Assembly: GCF_006345805.1 (NCBI RefSeq)
Contig: NC_043017.1
Location: 2,666,001 to 2,730,000 of the forward strand
Origin: Octopus sinensis
Lineage: Eukaryota
Length of the DNA: 64,000 nt
Reading direction: 5' to 3'
Shown: piece after piece, positions 25,820 to 40,696 of the stretch
How positions within the stretch are numbered: position 1 is the first letter of the stretch
Layout of the letters: each line of letters opens with the position of its first letter
Position numbers and translations under genes: made by a program
Notes under the pieces: model-generated
Seen by the model: only the letters and a program-made list of their open reading frames with translations
The model's database searches: none
Told to the model about the DNA's origin: nothing

Positions 25820-28800
25820 CTTTGATACTTTGATACTTTGATAGGTTTCGGCCATTATTGGCCCAGGCCATGTCTAACTTAATAGCACCACCTGGTGAAG
25901 TCTTTCAAGTCAGAATTTGGGCACTATGGCCCACTCAAGTAGAGAGTTGTTTTACAGAGACATATCGGGTGTAGGGGGTTTATCCGGGATTTCTTGAAGG
26001 AATCTGTCCAAAGACTTCTTGAACCCTATAGGGTCAGTTTCTGTTTTAATGCGTTTTGGTGTAATGTTAAAGAGAGCGGGGCCAATTGAGGTGAAATAAT
26101 GTGCCGTTTGTTATGAGATGAGAGTGCGATTTTTGTTTGGGCGGATGGCACGGGGCCCAAGCCTTGGATGTACCTTAAGGTGATGCCAACATCATTTGGG
26201 CAATGCTGATGGAATATTTTCCACATCATGCAGATGATGTAGCGCTCACGACGACGTTGATGGAGAGAATAGAGTTTTAGCTTTTCTAGTCGACCCCAAT
26301 AGTCGAGGCCTGTCATGCCATCTATCTTTTTTGTGATTGCCCTTGAGGTTGCTTCGACTTTTATGATACTTGTATTGTGTGGGGAGACCACAGTGGACAA
26401 CAGTATTCAAGGTGGGGTCGGGCAAAAGTGGAGAAGAGAAGGATAATGGTGTGATATCTCTCGACTGGAAAGTTCTGAGAATCCAGGAACACATTCTGCG
26501 GGCCATGTCAACTTTGGTGTTTATATGAGTGGCCCAGCTTACGTTGTTGTCCACAATTACTCCCAAGTCTCTGATGTTGTTGGACGCCGTGTGAGAGTTT
26601 CACCTGAAGGAAGGGGAGTATGGGAGTTTCAGGGCATCCTCTTTTCCAAAGTGGATTAGCTCAAAATTATCCTCGTTCAGCAGCATATTGTTTTTTCTGC
26701 CCATTGGATAAACAGCCAGTAGATCTGACTGAAGGCATGTCCGGTCACTCGCCTCATTTATGACCTTCTGTAGCTTGGAGTCATCTGCAAAGATTTTTAT
26801 GTTGCTGTGCTTGATGATGTCATTAATGTCATTAATGTAAATGATGAAAAGAAGTGGGCCCAGCACAGTGCCTTGCGGAACGCCACTACTGACTTTGCTG
26901 GGCTTGATTTACCCCTTCAACTACAACATGTTGAGATCTGTCTGTCAGGAAACACTTAATCCATTTCAGTAACTTTCCAGAGACACCAATGTTGGATAGT
27001 TTTTTCAATAGGATCTTTGTATCGACCCTGTCGAAGGCCTTACTGAAATCAAGGTAGATGACATCGGTGTTGGAGCCCTCTCCCAAGCTCTCAAAATGTC
27101 CTCAAAGTGATGCAGGAGCTGCGTTAGGCAGTCCCTTCCATTACGGAACCCATGTTGGTTGGAGATCAGCCGTCTGTTGCTTTCCAGAAATTGGGTTATT
27201 TGAGATCTCACCACCCTCTCAAATACCTTGATGATATGGAGGTGAGTGAGATCGGACGGTAATTCACTGCAAGGGACTTGTTTCCCTTTTTGAAAACTGG
27301 GACAACAGACTGGGACAGAAGGTTTTTTGGAATATAGCCAGCATCCAGTGAGTTTCTCCACAGATTAGAAAGGGGAGATGCAAGTTGGTGTCGACACACC
27401 TTCAGGGACACAAGCGGGAACCTATCGGGGCCTACTGCTGAATGGTGTTTTATTTCGTTTATCGCCGCTAAGACATCAGGGGCACTAAACGTTATGCGAT
27501 ATAGGTGTTGGGGGTTGACATCATGATACAGCCCAGATCGGCCATATCAGGATTGCTGAAAACAGAGCAGTATTGTTTCTGCAGTATCTCGGCCATGGAT
27601 TTGGCATTATCTTGGAGAGTGCCAGTTTCGTCAATTAGAGGGCCTACAGTGGAGACAGTGACCCTGCGTTTCCTCGCAAATGAAAAGAACACTTTGGGGT
27701 TGAGTTTGATTTTTCAATGGCCCACTTCTCCTCAGCTGATCTTTGGTTATTGATGAGGGACTTCATGCATTGTGGAGGTTATATTTTTGGGATTCAAGCA
27801 GTGCGATAGCTGTCGAATGTGTGTGTTGCTGTTGGCAGTACTTTAGTTTGTTAATTTTTTTGTTTTTCTTTTATTTTTCTGATAATGGTTTTTCTGTTTT
27901 GGGGGATTCTGCACTTTTGTTCACAGGTCTTGGTGGGAGTGTTTTGCACATATGTCTGTGACGGTTGTCTACAAAGATCTGCCAAGATGTTTTATGGTTG
28001 GTGGAGATGTGTGTATGTGTAAAGGACCAGTCAACATTTGATAGCTCGTTCCTGATTGCATCCCAGTTGGCTTTATGGAGATCCATGTTGTCAAATGGGT
28101 GGGCTGGAGGAAGGTCACTAGATTAGCTTTCGGCTGGTGGAATTTCATGTTACAGAGAACCATGTCATGGTCTGAAAGAAGGGTTTTTTCCACTGTAACG
28201 TTATGTATAGTGTTAGTGTGGTTACTAAACACTAGGTCCAAAATGTTCTGATGTCTTGTTGGTGAATGCAGGACAAGTTGGGACAAGAAAAACTCATTCG
28301 TAAAGTCGAAAAGTGACTCTGCTGCTTCTTTGTCAGCGGTTGAGGCGGGGAGGGAGTGCTTGGTTTCAAACAGTTTGTAGTCCAGTCAACACAGGGTAGA
28401 TTGAAGTCTCCCATCATGAGTATGTTGCTAGAATGGCACTGTTGAATAAAGCACTTAATGCTGTTGAGGCATTCTTTAAAGCACAGTATGGGTGTTGGGG
28501 GCGGCCTATAGAGTCCAATTACTGTCAGATCATTGGCTTTGTTGTGCACGGTGACTGATTCACAGTAGCCGTTGGAGAATATACTATTTCCATCTGCCGT
28601 AAATGAATCATGCAGGAAAATGGCAGTTCCACCCTTCCTCCTGCCGATACGATCCGCGCGGATGGTTGTGAAATTCTTCACTCTCACTTCGGCTTCCAAG
28701 TGGGAGTTGTCAAGGTGGGTCTCAGTGAGAATGAGAAGAAAGGATGTGGTGTGAATGGTTACCAACCCAGTCTTCAATGAATTGGACCTTCCATTTTTGT

Positions 28801-29440
28801 GCATTGATGGAAGGGCTGACACCTTGTGCATTGAGTAGGAATGTGGAGGTTAGTGTAGTGGCTGGTTTTGACTGTTGCAGGGGGCTTGGATTTTTTGTGT
28901 GTGTTAGTGGCAGCAATGTGGGGAATTGGTTGCACTGGGGGTAATAGCATAGGATGGTGTTGAGTGATGGCTAGAATGTTTTTGTGTATCTCTTTGCCAT
29001 GTTCAACATGGCTAAAAAAGAATTTTCCTGCTTAGGGAGCAGTTTTTGGCTTGGAGGTGTGGTTGCACTGTTGGATAGGGTTGTAGTTTCCACTTTTGTT
29101 GTTGTGTTTTGTGTTCCTGAAAAGACTGGACCAGCATTACTGCAGCATGGTGTGTTTCTATTTTTATTGTTATTCAGGTTTGTGTGTGGCTTGAGGCCCC
29201 GTTTCTGTTTGTGCGTCGGGTCCCTGGAAGATGAGTGAAGGGACAGTCACTCAGTAGACATGTTCTCTCACGTTGGGAATACCGGCAGATTTTGGGACTC
29301 CGAGTTGTGTGTGTTTTGAATTTCGATTTACTATTTGGTGGTGTTGATGTTATTGTGGGATGCGTGTTTTGGCCTGGCCGGTAGTGCGTCTAGTGCCGGG
29401 TAGATGCGTGAAGATGCAGTCACTATTGTGCAGAGTCTCA
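25820..29440 (-). mobile_element. Near full-length CR1-clade LINE (ORF1 remnant + APE/RT ORF2, frameshifted)
   Basis: APE motifs (LILTETHL, IRADRIGRRKGG, IGLYRPP, MGDFNLP, NILDLVF, SDH) at about 28160-28850. RT motifs ([49 protein letters not shown]) at about 26250-27300. 3' tail is three copies of an 8-mer (CTTTGATA on +, 25820-25843). Flanked on both sides by (TA)n. Confidence 0.95.
25950..28850 (-). pseudogene. CR1 ORF2 (AP endonuclease + reverse transcriptase), broken by many single-base frameshifts
   Basis: Consecutive ORF-track fragments 28722-28916, 28232-28831, 27969-28286, 27871-28086, 27492-27692, 27208-27411, 27005-27361, 26886-27086, 26600-26866, 26246-26566 and 26026-26400 chain into one APE-RT polyprotein across frame changes. 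Confidence 0.9.
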
Positions 29441-32989: not shown

Positions 32990-33335
32990 GCACCCCGGGC
33001 ATCAAAACCTGGCGATGGGTTCCTGTCCAGCCAACGAGTCTACTTCGAAACTGGTATGGTTCAGGATCGCCAGCTCGGACTGTTGGACAGTGTTGCTTGA
33101 TTTTCCGAATTAGACCCTTCTTATCTTGTTCTCTCCATTGAGGACCCAGTTGGGTTGGGGCTCGTGTTGGTCGACCACATACCACATGGTCACTGCAGAT
33201 GAGGAAGTATCTCGCTGGGATGGGGACTGACTAGGACACGAGTCGACGGATCGCCGAGAGGACCTGAAAATATATCGACAAACGGCGAATGCAGGCAACG
33301 CGGTGCATCGGTGCATGCCCCAACATCTGACCTTC
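32990..33335 (+). mobile_element. RTE-clade LINE 3' relic
   Basis: Translation SSQRVYFETGM..DRQLGLLDSVA*FSELDPSYLVLSIEDPVG / GRPHTTWSLQM / ATRCIGAC resembles the RTE ORF2 C-terminus (SN..L.RETG..RQLRLFGHVAR...DP...GRP..TW). Repeated at 34030-34300 by the gap duplication. Confidence 0.75.
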
Positions 33336-33929
33336 TAAATAAATGCTATTACGCCCTTTACTCCTGGAATTGTATTCTCTTCTGACCTTGTGCCTTCCTT
33401 TTAAAAAATTCCCGGGATCGTGCCTACTTTTCAAGAAGATCTACTGCTTAAAAGAATTATCTACCCACGTACCTTGAGGCAAAACCTGTTCTTTAACAAC
33501 CATAATGCTTTCAGAGGATTTTGGCAGTGAAGTTTGTAACTTATACGGTTTTAAGAGCTTAACTTTTGTTTTCTCTTAAGATTATTCGAGGTTTCCGGTT
33601 TCATTGTAAACGCTGGATTCCTCACCAAGGCTTTAAATCAGTACTCAGCGACTGGTGTGCCGCGGCACCCTGGTGTTTCACGAGACGATGCTAAGTGTGC
33701 CTCAGTGTAACCTGAATTTAATTTTTTCCCCTATACTTAGTTATATTTTTCGTTCAGTTGTGCCGCCGAATTTTGAAAAGAATATATAAGTGTACTAGAA
33801 ATATCAGATAAGCTTCCTTTAAAACATATTAATTTCTACTCTAGGCACAAGGCCCGAAGTTTTGGAAGAGGGAGCCAGTCGATTAGATCGACCCTAGTGT
33901 GCGACTGGTACTTAATTTATCGACCCCGA

Positions 33930-34029
33930 NNNNNNNNNNNNNNNNNNNNNNNNNNNNNNNNNNNNNNNNNNNNNNNNNNNNNNNNNNNNNNNNNNNNNNN
34001 NNNNNNNNNNNNNNNNNNNNNNNNNNNNN
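33930..34029. other. Assembly gap (100 N) flanked by a duplicated overlap
   Basis: 33062-33929 is repeated at 34030-34894 with mainly 1-3 nt indels. Confidence 0.95.
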
Positions 34030-34796
34030 CAGGATCGCCAGCTCGGACTGTTGGACAGTGTTGCTTGATTTTCCGAATTAGACCCTTCTTATCTTGTTCT
34101 CTCCATTGAGGACCCAGTTGGGTTGGGGCTCGTGTTGGTCGACCACATACCACATGGTCACTGCAGATGAGGAAGTATCTCGCTGGGATGGGGACTGACT
34201 AGGACACGAGTCGACGGTCGCCGAGAGGACCTGAAAATATATCGACAAACGGCGAATGCAGGCAACGCGGTGCATCGGTGCATGCCCCAACATCTGACCT
34301 TCTAAATAAATGCTATTACGCCCTTTACTACTCCTGGAATTGTATTCTCTTCTGACCTTGTGCCTTCCTTTTAAAAAATTCCCGGATCGTGCCTACTTTT
34401 CAAGAAGATCTACTGCTTAAAAGAATTATCTACCCACGTACCTTGAGGCAAAACCGTTCTTTAACAACCATAATGCTTTCAGAGATTTTGGCAGTGAAGT
34501 TTTTAACTTATACGGTTTTAAGAGCTTAACTTTGTTTTCTCTTTAGATTATTCGAGGTTCCGGTTTCATTGTAAACGCTGGATTCCTCACCAGGCTTTAA
34601 ATCAGTACTCAGCGACTGGTGTGCCGCGGCACCCTGGTGTTTCACGAGACGATGCTAAGTGTGCCCTCAGTGTAACCTGAATTTAATTTTTTCCCCTATA
34701 CTTAGTTATATTTTTCGTTCAGTTGTGCCGCCGAATTTTGAAAAGAATATATAAGTGTACTAGAAATATCAGATAAGCTTCCTTTAAAACATATTA

Positions 34797-35010
34797 ATTT
34801 CTACTCTAGGCACAAGGCCCGAAGTTTTGGAAGAGGGAGCCAGTCGATTAGATCGACCCTAGTGTGCGACTGGTACTTAATTTATCGACCCCGAAAGGAT
34901 GAAAGGCAAAGTCGACCTCGGCGGAATTTGAACTCAGAACGTAACGGCAGACGAAATACCGCTAAGCATTTCGCCCGGCGTGCTAACGTTTCTGCCAGCT
35001 CGCCACCTTT
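34797..35010 (-). mobile_element. tRNA-derived SINE, family B (MetaSINE-like central domain)
   Basis: Minus strand: GAGCTGGCAGAAACGTTAG...GAGTTCAAATTCCGCCGAGGTCGACTTTGCCTTTCATCCTTTCGGGGTCGATAAATTAAGTACCAG; the last part resembles the Meta domain as recalled. Copies at about 22370-22570, 25230-25365, 47640-47907, 55250-55460 and 61822-61935. Confidence 0.85.
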
Positions 35011-36678
35011 CTATTGTATCATATTGCTGTCTTGAAAAAGGACACTTTAAATAATGTGGTTCTGATTTCACTGTGATATGTGAATGACGTGATGGTCACG
35101 GTTTGATCGCCTTTGCTCACTAGCACGCTTGTTAGAATTGAATCTGGGGTAAAACAGCAAAAGTAAGAAAGGAAACTCCCATCAGTTCTCAACAACCAAA
35201 TCTTCAAACCGTCCCCTACTATGCTCCGAACGGGACCAGGAGATATATTTCTCAGTGTACGAGACCAACGAGGTGGTCGTTATTGGATTGTCAGGTCTTC
35301 TTTCATTAGGAATGGCTTGCAGGTAAAGCATAAAACAACATCGACAGACCCCGTCATAAATGTCTAGATTTGGAAAGTACAGACAACCGAGCTAATCCTT
35401 TTTGTGTGGGGTTTATGTCGAATGATATGAATGATATTAAATGGAAACTAACCGCTTACAATCCTAAGTGCAGGCTCGTGTGTTGTGTGTACACATAAAT
35501 GATATGAACATCTGTGTGTGTGTGTATATGTATATATATATATACGCTCGCACATGCACAGGTAATATAATTAATTTTTACACACACACATATTCTCTTG
35601 CGCGCGCTCTTTCTAACACACGTGCGCGCGAGAATCGCTACTTAATCTAATTGTTCGTATCTGAAATATTGCACTGAATAAATGGACATTGGGATTTGAA
35701 TGTATTTGTCTACGCTGCGAGCCTCTCTGTGTGTGTGCGTGTGTGTGTGGTTTAATTAAGGCCAGTCAGACACCGAGTTCAGTTCTAATTCTCAAGAACA
35801 GCTTCGAGCGATGATTATTAAATGAGACTAATTTTACGGAGAAGCGGATAGAGTGAACCATCTTTGTGTCATTGTGTTTATCTTGTGAGAGAGACTGCTT
35901 TATCTTCGTGCAGGTTTCTATCAACCCAAGGAGAGAGAGAGTGAGAGAGGCGATACAAATTAGCTTATGGTCCCCTGATGTAGACATCTATCATTTTACT
36001 TTCGATGTATCAAATCAGCTTCGACTGGACTAACTCTGTGACTTCTTACTTTTTCTCGCTTTTTACTGTGTGTGTGTGTGCTGTTTATTATCCTTTCCAT
36101 TACCAATAACCACTAAATGCTATGTTATACTGCTACTTCTTGTTACACTGCTATTATTTGCTGCTACGACCACCACAGTCACTGTTTATCGATCTTTTAC
36201 TTGGCCGCTGAACACACACACACACACACACACACATTATCCAGTATGAGTGTGTGTGTGTGCATTCAATTTCTGTAAGAGCTTTTTGATTTAACACCTT
36301 TCCCCCGCCGCCTGTGAATACACTTTTCCTCCTCGTCATAAAGGTAATATGTGTGTGTGTGCGCGCGCGTATATATATATGTTTATACACACACACATAC
36401 ATGTGTGTGTGTAGGAGAGAGAGAGAGGGGGGTGCGCATTCCCGCGCCGCGCGCACTCCTGGTTCTGAGACTTGTCAGGTTTACACACGTGTAGTAAACA
36501 CGAGTGCGTCGTCGTCACACACCATGGGCAGATAACTCTTGTGGAGCATTGGATCCCGTTCTCTTGTTTACATTCACTTTCTTTCTTTCGCCCTCACATT
36601 CACTTTCTTTCTCCTCCCTTCCCTGTCTCTCTATCTCACCCTCTTTCTCTCTATCCCTCCCCCTCTCTCTCTCAACAG

Positions 36679-36729
36679 ATGTGATGGAAATAAGCTTCGA
36701 AAACTCATTAATACAAACGACCCAGCCAG
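36679..36729 (+). CDS. Candidate 51-nt in-frame cassette exon of the LMO4-like gene
   Basis: Long CT tract + caacag acceptor at 36678 and CAG|gtaact donor at 36729/36730. Length is a multiple of 3 and open in the same phase-2 frame as the 40075 exon (R-CDGNKLRKLINTNDPA-R). No transcript evidence available. Confidence 0.4.
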
Positions 36730-36772
36730 GTAACTTCTACACGGATAATAACCATTGATAGGTACTACTAGC

Positions 36773-36985
36773 GAACAGTGGTCCCGGTGCGCGCACTCGC
36801 GTAGTCGCGCATCCGCGCTAGCTAGTCGTGACTAGTCTATCCTACAACGACTACCTAGCAAAGTAAATAAAACACAAAATAATTTTTGTTAAACAAAGTT
36901 AATAACCCAAAAACATAAAGTAAGTATCGACTAGTCATGACTAGCTAGCGCGGATGCGCGAGTACACGCACCGGGACCACTGTTC
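36773..36985. repeat. CpG-rich foldback element / MITE with ~57-65 bp arms
   Basis: Left arm 36773-36837 and right arm 36929-36985 are reverse complements apart from three substitutions and an 8-nt insertion. AT-rich spacer; no clear TSD. Confidence 0.85.
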
Positions 36986-39481
36986 TTAAGTAGAATTGTT
37001 TATAGTAACTGAACAAAATATGGAGCAGTGGTCGTTGTTGGAATGTTTTAAAACCCTTTGCCAAATAACGAAAAGAAGTCAATAAAGGATCGGTTATCTA
37101 GTCACTCGGTCTGCTAGATATAGCAGCCAAATCTCCCTCAGATGATCAAACCAGTTTCATCTGGTGGACTTGTGTAAATTCAGGGAAATAAAAAGAAAAA
37201 CCTATTTTGGCTATCTTGGGTTGTATTCAAATCCCTTCGATTTTTACTTTCCTCCATCCTTCTGAGTTCGATTAAATAAAGCACTTGTCACATATTGTGA
37301 TCGATTTATACTAACCATCCCTTTAATGCATAAATCTTTAAGAATTCTGGTCGTAATTATAATAGAAGACATAAAGGACATGATAAATACTTGGGTTGAA
37401 TAAATGTGGGACATCGCTGATCACGGTATGCTTTCTCTGCACTGATTCAATGCTCAATAAGTACCGGCCTGGGACTTAAACCACCCTTACACAACTCTAT
37501 TTATCTATTCCATTTATTTTATTTATCATTGAGTAAAGCTTCGAAAAACTCATCAAACAAATTTCCTTCGTTTCTCTCTTCCTTCCTTTCTGTCACCCAC
37601 GGCCTTCCATAACAACTCTCCCTCCCTTCCTTGCTCTCCGCTTGTCTACATCTCACCTCCGTCGCCTGCATCTCACCTCTTTCTCAATTATTCTTGTAGG
37701 AACACAAACCCGCTCCCTTACTCAACCACACACACACATTCACACACACACACACTCAGTCGCGCGTATATTCTTGCTCTCCTTTCGCTTCCACAGTTGC
37801 GCACATTCGTCTTATCTGTCCCATCCACACGCACAGACTTCGCTTCGCTCACAGTGACATGATGGCAAGAAAATTAACAGGAAATGAGTGTAAAAGGGCT
37901 TATAGTAGAGAGGAGAGGAACGATTGGAGAGAAAGGGGGCTTCGAGAATAGAGAGGGGCGAGCTCCTTCGTTTTTCTTGTCCCCTTTTCTCCTCCTCCTC
38001 TCCGCATTTTCCATCACCACCACTATCTTTCGCCATCAAATGTATTTTCTATTTTCAAATAGGATTTACTTGGAGGATGGGGTCACAAGGAAATATTTAA
38101 TTAAACCTTTATTACTTTGTAGCTCTGTCTAGCTTTTACTTGTCTGTGTGTGTGTGTGTTGTATTCTTTTTTATTGCTATTTGTTTAGCTTTTGCTCTGT
38201 GTGTGTGGTACGCGTGTGTTCGTTGTTGTTGTAGTTGTGGAGGTTTTATTATTGTTAGTGCTGTTTTAATTCGTTTGTATATGTGTAAATGTATAGTCCC
38301 CCCCCCTCGCTTCGTCTCTCCTCCTCCTTCACCGATAACATTTCGGTTCGGATAAGTGGGAGGGGGGGGGGAGTTAATTAAATGAAATGAAGACAAACTT
38401 TTAATACAACCAAGAGTGAAATGAAATCAATATTGACCATACCAACAACAACAACAACTGTAGTAATAGTAATAGTAGTATGTACGTACGTATGTATGTA
38501 TGTATGTACGTATGTATGTATAGTGTATATACAGTAAGGTTGATTTTCCAGAGTATGTGTGTGTGTAAATAAAATATATTGGCCGTTTTCATATGGTCTT
38601 TCTGTCAGATGTAGATAAATTTTCTGATTTCTCTCCCCCGTCTCTCTCTCTCTCTCGGTCTTTTCTCCTCTCGCTTTCTTTGTTTCTCTCTCTCTCCTCT
38701 CTCTCTCACTATAATTCATGTCGTTCTATGTGCTTCCTTTCATGTAATCTTCGCTTATACGATCGTAATTTAAACTATTGTGACCTCAGTCCAGAGCCAG
38801 CCAACTTTTACAAGTCTGTTGTTAACAAATATTCTCTCTTCCCCCCCACCTCTCTCACTCTCTTTCTCACGCGCGTGCACCCGCGCACACACACACACTC
38901 ACCTACACACATGATGTGGGACTAGTGGACAACGACACATTTGGAAGACAGGAAAAATAACACAAACAATGTGGACACGCTCTCCCCTCATCAGTTATTT
39001 GCCAAAAATCACCACAATTTCGACTCTTCTACACACATACACAGCGTATATTCTGTCTCGGGGAAATAATATAAACAGCTTATATTTTTTGCTGCGAAAA
39101 ACAAACTGTATATCGTTTCTAGCTGATCTCTTCACAACCGAAGTGCATTCACTAAGTCAATATAATCTCTCCCCCCCTCTCTCTCCACATTCTTTTGGTA
39201 AACCCAAGATAATCGTTTCAAATCTTATCTGCTTCAACTTTTAAATATTATTTTCCCATTAAACTTGATTACATAAATGTACTTATGGACATGTATCTTT
39301 ATTGCATTTGAACTTTTCCAAATATTCAGCTGGAATGCTATAGAAACCAGTGGATAAGGCCAATAGGATGGTAATCTGGTTCATAGTTATAAAAATTATA
39401 GTGGGGAAACAGTGGGAAGGAATTCATCTCTTTCTCCAGAAAATGAAAGACTAAGGAGGACTTGAAATTCATGAAAATGAA

Positions 39482-39651
39482 ATTATATTAAGGGAGCAAG
39501 GGGCAAAAACAACTTTGAAGTGCCAAGACCTTCAAACAACTACCAAAAATTCCAAATATTTAATTTGGAATTCTTGGTAGATTTTTGAAGGTCTCAGCAC
39601 TTCAAACATGTTGGGGTTAGGTCATTTTCACCTTTGCTCCCTTAATATAAT
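39482..39651. repeat. Palindromic MITE-like hairpin
   Basis: ATTATATTAAGGGAGCAA...TTTGAAGTGC..AGACCTTCAAA..CTACCAA.AATTCCAAAT-loop-ATTTGGAATT.TTGGTAG..TTTGAAGGTCT..GCACTTCAAA...TTGCTCCCTTAATATAAT. Confidence 0.85.
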
Positions 39652-40074: not shown

Positions 40075-40312
40075 AATGTTCGGTCCTGGAGGTTCCTGTG
40101 CATCGTGTGGGCTAAGTATTCCTGCCACAGAACTAGTGATGCGCGTTCAAGGGAATGTATATCATATTAAATGTTTCACCTGCGTCACATGCCACCACCA
40201 ACTCAATCCCGGCGAACGCTTTAGCTTAGTAAACGGAAGCTTGCTCTGTGAACAAGATTATCCAAAAGTTTTGCGTGGACATGTTCAGGTACCTGCCCGG
40301 TCGACTCATAAG
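40075..40312 (+). CDS. LMO4: Internal coding exon of an LMO4-like LIM-domain-only protein (second LIM domain)
   Basis: Polypyrimidine tract and ccag acceptor end at 40074. Translation (R)MFGPGGSCASCGLSIPATELVMRVQGNVYHIKCFTCVTCHHQLNPGERFSLVNGSLLCEQDYPKVLRGHVQVPARSTHK is a full LIM motif C-x2-C-x18-H-x2-C-x2-C-x2-C-x18-C-x2-D, closely resembling vertebrate LMO4 LIM2 as recalled (RLFGNSGACSACGQSIPASELVMRAQGNVYHLKCFTC). Donor AAG|gtatgg at 40312/40313; read-through gives VWTVQQARPICPKN* ending at 40357. Confidence 0.9.
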
Positions 40313-40696
40313 GTATGGACTGTACAGCAAGCTCGACCTATTTGCCCCAAAAATTAGAAATTTAGTCATTGTGTTATGAAAGGAAAACCTTTTTTTTTTT
40401 TATTTTGTATTTTATTTTCATTTTTTTTATATATATATATATTTTTGTTTTTGTTTTTTTAAATTTCTTATCAGGGGAGAAAAAGTACTCGGTGGGGGGG
40501 AAAGAAAAAAAAAAGAATTAAAGTCATTTTAAACATACAGTTTTTTTGGGGTTTTCTTTTTCCATTTTATATACACACATACATACATATATATATATAT
40601 ATATAAATATATCTATTTTTCATTGATTTTTTTTTTTCCTTTTTGTCACATCTAAAATCCTCACTTTTTTCTCTTGTCTATACTTCAGATACACAT

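Follow-up and report, generated by a model that had tools for sequence, protein, structure and literature searches.

An exon-like 51-nt unit in a long LMO4 intron of Octopus sinensis, probably a decoy exon

The LMO4 locus

The window, by which we mean the whole 64-kb stretch of Octopus sinensis DNA that was analyzed, carries on its plus strand one exon of an LMO4 gene:

40075 to 40312, plus strand: coding exon for LIM2 in an Octopus LMO4 paralogue, with the donor AAG/GTATGG at 40313; a read-through form ends ...CPKN at 40354

The exon begins behind the acceptor TTTCCAG/A at 40075, continues with MFGPGGSC, and encodes a Pfam LIM domain (E = 3.3e-18). It is identical to the O. vulgaris protein CAI9738663 at 80 of 81 residues, and the sole difference falls on the 3' junction residue. 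The preliminary description of this DNA had named LMO4 as the host gene, and our searches agree: LMO4 chains rank first among solved LIM structures, with CAI9738663 scoring 200 bits against LMO4 and 130 bits against LMO2. Two tandem LIM domains without a homeodomain are seen in the near-identical protein P0007; the window itself carries the LIM2 exon alone.

Searches of the 64-kb window by tblastn, with 6 and then with 15 LMO4 proteins, returned the LIM2 exon as the only match and no LIM1 exon. Provided that the assembly is correct, the intron before LIM2 thus exceeds 40 kb. Because the LIM1 exon lies outside the window, the phase of the upstream donor was taken from relatives. The LIM1-only O. 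bimaculoides model P0009 runs off beyond DYIR, in agreement with an AG/GT donor at that point. We rejected the idea that the LIM1 exon lies inside a 100-N gap (33930 to 34029). This gap is flanked by an 870-nt sequence present twice at 98.5% identity (33062 to 34894), a pattern suggestive of an overlap in the assembly that leaves little sequence out. Motif searches of the window found no exon downstream of LIM2. The intron also holds a decayed LINE-type retroelement on the minus strand (26029 to 28849), with pieces of reverse transcriptase and endonuclease.

In a tree of 22 proteins that left 13 of its 19 inner branches open, the two octopod LMO4 paralogues each fell on their own well-supported branch. 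The LMO4 of the window belongs to paralogue A, whose branch stands apart from paralogue B with support of 100/100; the sister relation of the two paralogues is among the points that this tree leaves open. The pairs P0007/P0020 and P0008/P0003, octopod LMO4 paralogues of O. vulgaris and Argonauta, lie on contigs that are equally long and close in accession number, and the two paralogues are likely linked duplicates.

Four kinds of C termini follow the LIM2 exon among the relatives of paralogue A. The read-through C terminus (40313 to 40357) is identical in the window and in three Logan proteins whose LIM2 differs. On this evidence the donor at 40313 is alternatively used or read through, and the identical tail points to an alternative end that is conserved.

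An exon-like unit behind a microsatellite tract

About 3.3 kb upstream of the LIM2 exon, the intron contains the following features:

36626 to 36673, plus strand: degenerate (TC)24 microsatellite that provides the candidate acceptor with its pyrimidine tract (TRF period 2, 24 copies, 71% matches)
36676 to 36678, plus strand: candidate 3' splice site CAG, the first AG, 3 nt past the pyrimidine tract
36679 to 36729, plus strand: 51-nt exon-like candidate unit of phase 2-2 with an open frame of 17 residues
36730 to 36735, plus strand: candidate 5' splice site GTAACT, with C at +5 and a donor score of 5.2

The signals on which the preliminary description had based a cassette exon (a pyrimidine tract, AACAG, 51 nt, and CAG/GTAACT) are all present in the sequence. 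Positions -25 to -6 are pyrimidines in 20 of 20 cases, AACAG ends at 36678, and the GT of the donor stands at 36730. The frame logic put forward there was also borne out. The unit starts with A, like the LIM2 exon, and ends in AG, so that inclusion would add 17 residues. Translated in the same phase as the LIM2 exon, it reads CDGNKLRKLINTNDPA-R with no stop, and the same frame continued past the donor stops immediately.

On a metazoan matrix not trained on octopus, the donor scores 5.2 versus 4.6 for the donor that follows the LIM2 exon, and overall the splice sites of the unit score at least as high as those of the real LIM2 exon. The unit therefore has what a coding cassette needs, namely, a pyrimidine tract with a YAG acceptor, a GT donor of usable strength, a length divisible by three, no stop, and matching phase, the upstream phase being that of relatives. 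As a set of exon-like signals within an intron, it equally resembles a pseudoexon. Two smaller observations concern the same stretch. A possible branch point at 36635 to 36639 matches only a very loose consensus and was left uncounted, and the core of the unit has a 27-column near-copy at 37536 to 37561 (89%, E = 0.004, uncorrected).

How often would such a unit arise by chance? The window has 17 C/T-rich tracts on the plus strand and 1 on the minus strand. Among the 17 listed, the first AG follows within 6 nt in 3, and it is CAG only at 36676 to 36678. The 51-nt unit is the sole stop-free, phase-2 unit with a length divisible by three in positions 1 to 40000, and it remained so at all five settings of our scan. 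The chance of at least one such unit in 40 kb was 0.02 at the site strengths of the LMO4 gene itself and rose to 0.07, 0.17, and 0.39 at looser cutoffs. A setting fitted to the candidate gave a chance of ∼0 and was excluded from the count. In these figures acceptors were scored by their pyrimidine share and donors by the same metazoan matrix, and the figures apply to one window; a scan of many windows would yield such units regularly. Among control regions, the minus strand gave 0 units in five settings and the downstream region gave 1 at the two loosest, while an earlier version of the scan at its loosest setting gave 1 unit in each. The 51-nt unit thus modestly exceeds chance expectation. 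As a separate matter, the strand bias of the C/T tracts (17 versus 1) agrees with one long transcript on the plus strand.

We consider it probable that the unit is a decoy (pseudo-) exon in the long LMO4 intron and is normally passed over by the spliceosome. Its pyrimidine tract likely arose by chance from a (TC)n microsatellite; an AG that happened to fall 3 nt behind it and a fair donor 51 nt farther on would have completed an exon-like unit. In human introns, decoy exons outnumber real ones about tenfold, according to the available text of two reports (PMC3098058, PMC1935003). The uniqueness of the unit speaks against a decoy, with a chance of 0.02 to 0.17 at the stricter thresholds, as do sites that match or beat those of the LIM2 exon and a CAG that stands alone among 17 C/T tracts.

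The uniqueness of the unit and a phase that fits on both sides favor a real and regulated in-frame cassette exon, which would place 17 residues before the inter-LIM Phe-Gly hinge and likely uncouple the two LIM domains. The microsatellite nature of the pyrimidine tract counts against this reading, as does the protein record considered below, and we regard it as unlikely.

The surrounding intron and non-coding alternatives

Two further features lie behind the donor of the unit:

36765 to 36993, plus strand: foldback element with GC-rich arms of ∼70 to 80 nt around an AT-rich loop of ∼80 nt, 35 nt behind the donor
36917 to 36925, plus strand: second donor AAA/GTAAGT, with its GT at 36920 on the loop-arm border of the hairpin, score 5.79

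The foldback element folds at -124.3 kcal/mol (z = -15.3), and its arms are full of short palindromes. With its terminal inverted repeats enclosing a short core that does not code, it has the form of a MITE. It is present as a single copy in the 64-kb window, no target-site duplication was seen by eye, and Rfam and ARAGORN returned 0 matches and 0 tRNAs, respectively; we call it MITE-like. We saw no sign that the hairpin buries the donors, whose mean unpaired probabilities in a local fold were 0.63 and 0.62. On the cassette reading, the element might tune inclusion of the unit.

Strong hairpins are not rare in this intron, since a second foldback of equal z (-15.1) lies at 39482 to 39651, 420 nt before the LIM2 exon. 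It has a 5-nt loop and a stem of more than 50 bp, occurs once in the window, and has no Rfam match; it is possibly a MITE, an editing substrate, or a hairpin RNA. The available text of PMC9699675 describes octopus hairpins as commoner in introns and 3' untranslated regions than in coding sequence, with most editing there.

The unit also lies in a CpG-rich part of the intron, a further point against a decoy. The observed/expected ratio of CpG is 0.90 at 31 to 39 kb, versus 0.33 at 1 to 15 kb and 0.42 at 39 to 64 kb. Such retention fits an unmethylated regulatory region, but it also fits transposons, in keeping with the accessible part of PMC9476566, where octopus promoters are scantily methylated and transposons are unmethylated too. 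Because of the transposons, and because the stretch at 15 to 25 kb is CpG rich as well (0.72), CpG content singles out no promoter here.

These data bear on whether the unit could be a real exon that does not code. It could form part of a 5' leader whose transcription starts at an internal promoter (∼31 to 36 kb), spliced to the LIM2 exon and possibly yielding a LIM2-only protein, or as a poison exon. Even with the two forms taken jointly, we think this improbable.

For the leader, the first codon of the LIM2 exon is itself Met (A/ATG), so that a LIM2-only protein could result. Met is, however, common at that position (26 of 193 family proteins), and the unit contains two out-of-frame ATGs, one of which opens a 28-codon frame overlapping the LIM2 ATG. 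The exact LIM2-only read-through protein was absent from the protein collection searched.

For the poison exon, the acceptor at 36678 joined to the donor at 36920 would give a 241-nt, frameshifting exon that stops early, after residue 18, leading to mRNA decay, and this donor scores higher than that at 36730 (5.79 versus 5.2). For any non-coding exon, a length divisible by three and an open frame would be coincidence.

The heptamer GCTTCGA occurs 5 times in 2.1 kb (35801 to 37945) and 10 times in the window, always on the plus strand (uncorrected counts), and could be a binding-site cluster or chance. The 5 copies beginning in 35801 to 37939, one of them inside the 51-nt unit, would suit a non-coding exon; against this, the cluster ranks only 16th among clustered 7-mers, again uncorrected.

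Inter-LIM spacing, the protein record, and closest known systems

Where would the 17 residues fall in the protein? The LIM1-LIM2 junction aligns without gaps to DYLR/LFG of LMO2, in which, according to the available part of PMC3887373, a short helix after LIM1 includes the hinge residue Phe88. A Phe-Gly hinge between LIM domains is also described in PMC3405102, as far as its accessible text goes, and the corresponding F75 and G76 are invariant in 26 aligned proteins. Since the AlphaFold model of P0007 has a helix at 68 to 75 with a pLDDT of <50 at 71 to 74, our placement of the helix leans on the LMO2 paper and the alignment.

By this analogy, the insert would likely fall in the conserved helix, one residue before the hinge Phe, and split it. 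The preliminary description had spoken of a lengthened linker; the alignment suggests instead that a helix would likely be broken rather than a flexible linker extended. Inclusion would then likely uncouple the two LIM modules. High-affinity binding of the LIM-interaction domain (LID) usually needs both LIM domains, as stated in the available text of PMC5496915, and an insert at this site would therefore matter, a point in favor of the cassette reading. Because the insert would likely split the inter-LIM helix, inclusion would more likely weaken than retune Ldb1 binding.

The short, fixed spacing between LIM domains that had been assumed for this family is confirmed by our counts. Counted between the final LIM1 ligand and the opening cysteine of LIM2, the spacing is 10 residues in 196 of the 203 proteins in which it could be measured, a count that does not equal independent lineages since the protein set is redundant. 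The remaining spacings are 7 to 9 in five proteins, 41 in one, and 71 in one; 7 proteins were unmeasurable. Such constancy argues against a cassette exon.

The only insert at the junction itself belongs to P0091 (KAH0618440), a lizard "hypothetical protein" gene model and a singleton with 31 extra residues. The insert ends in DFLVF before RLFG and looks like read-through of a pyrimidine tract, probably from a miscalled acceptor. We rejected this singleton gene model as a precedent. We likewise rejected P0115 (spacing 71), also a singleton, which is a partial model with a duplicated N terminus and LIM1. In the Bradysia LMO4 protein P0051, a 22-residue insert lies within LIM2, between zinc ligands, suggesting that insertions are tolerated in LIM loops though not at the hinge.

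The 17-residue peptide occurs in 0 of 210 retrieved LMO/LIM proteins, which include the best 150 of 6203 matches, and the sole word match to it among the 210 is one 5-mer in P0128. A search in the peptide frame gave no scoring match among 33 candidates, a result that the search tool itself notes as weak. With the full-length protein as query, 31 candidates yielded 17 proteins, and no insert-bearing cluster stood apart from the rest. In the 90% cluster of paralogue A we inspected all 12 members: 11 two-LIM members join DYIR directly to MFG, and the twelfth has LIM1 only. Since four different C termini were captured in this same cluster, the collection does record isoforms of paralogue A. Three octopod-type members of the cluster are genome gene models, nine Logan members differ from the sequence of the window, and transcript-derived octopus proteins are few in the set searched for the insert.

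Beyond these proteins, a metagenome scan gave 2 distant loci (43 to 49% identity) among 396 candidate stretches, and a viral collection gave 0 matches to the exon pattern. In the readable supplements of PMC9699675, a term search returned one table row for LMO4. The literature searched, with most subscription papers outside its scope, reported neither an LMO4 inter-LIM isoform nor cephalopod LMO4 splicing. The protein record thus leans against inclusion of the 51-nt unit, and its negatives are weak for Octopus itself, which tempers the case for a decoy.

If the unit is a decoy exon, the mature mRNA would run straight from LIM1 into LIM2, the arrangement shared by all retrieved relatives of paralogue A that have both LIM domains. 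Rare inclusion, if any, would be splicing noise that yields a protein with a split inter-LIM helix. In weighing the readings, we put the chance of a decoy at ∼5% per such intron, versus ∼1% for a coding cassette that sits at an invariant hinge and has escaped annotation, and likewise ∼1% for a non-coding exon in frame by accident; these figures are our own estimates. Decoy exons are common in long introns, so that a decoy would be of little consequence.

In its fullest form, the cassette reading describes an octopus-specific exon, born of a microsatellite and tuned by a hairpin, that interrupts the inter-LIM hinge helix in a single LMO4 paralogue. We think this unlikely. Alternative splicing in octopus is highest in neural tissue, according to the available part of PMC9699675, which would suit such an exon. 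Binding of the isoform to Ldb1 would be weak or confined to one of the LIM domains, making it a built-in damper. In neural tissue, the locus would amount to a natural splice switch, converting a partner of Ldb1 into a weak or one-handed binder. Use of the exon would break naturally a spacing that is otherwise nearly constant in LMO and LIM-homeodomain-type proteins, and it would provide a natural test of LIM1-LIM2 hinge geometry in Ldb1 binding, in a duplicated octopus regulator.

Frame-preserving cassette exons can alter a protein-binding surface. The unit resembles them in its length divisible by three, its symmetric phase, its lack of a stop, and its place at an exon junction between two domains; it differs in that its tract is a microsatellite and that it is known here from genomic sequence alone. 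The lizard model KAH0618440 shares an insert at the same junction, but with 31 residues of unrelated sequence it sets no precedent for a real isoform. The closest proteins are cephalopod LMO4 paralogue A (O. vulgaris CAI9738663 and Argonauta GAB1607007); their likeness to the window is that of the LIM2 exon to CAI9738663 given above, and in contrast to a protein with the unit included, no retrieved member has 17 extra junction residues. Compared with pseudoexons, the candidate differs in preserving the frame and in being stronger than any other unit in its 40 kb, and its non-use is presumed. It nonetheless has their form, as given in the available text of PMC1935003: an intronic unit of 50 to 200 nt between good acceptor and donor signals.
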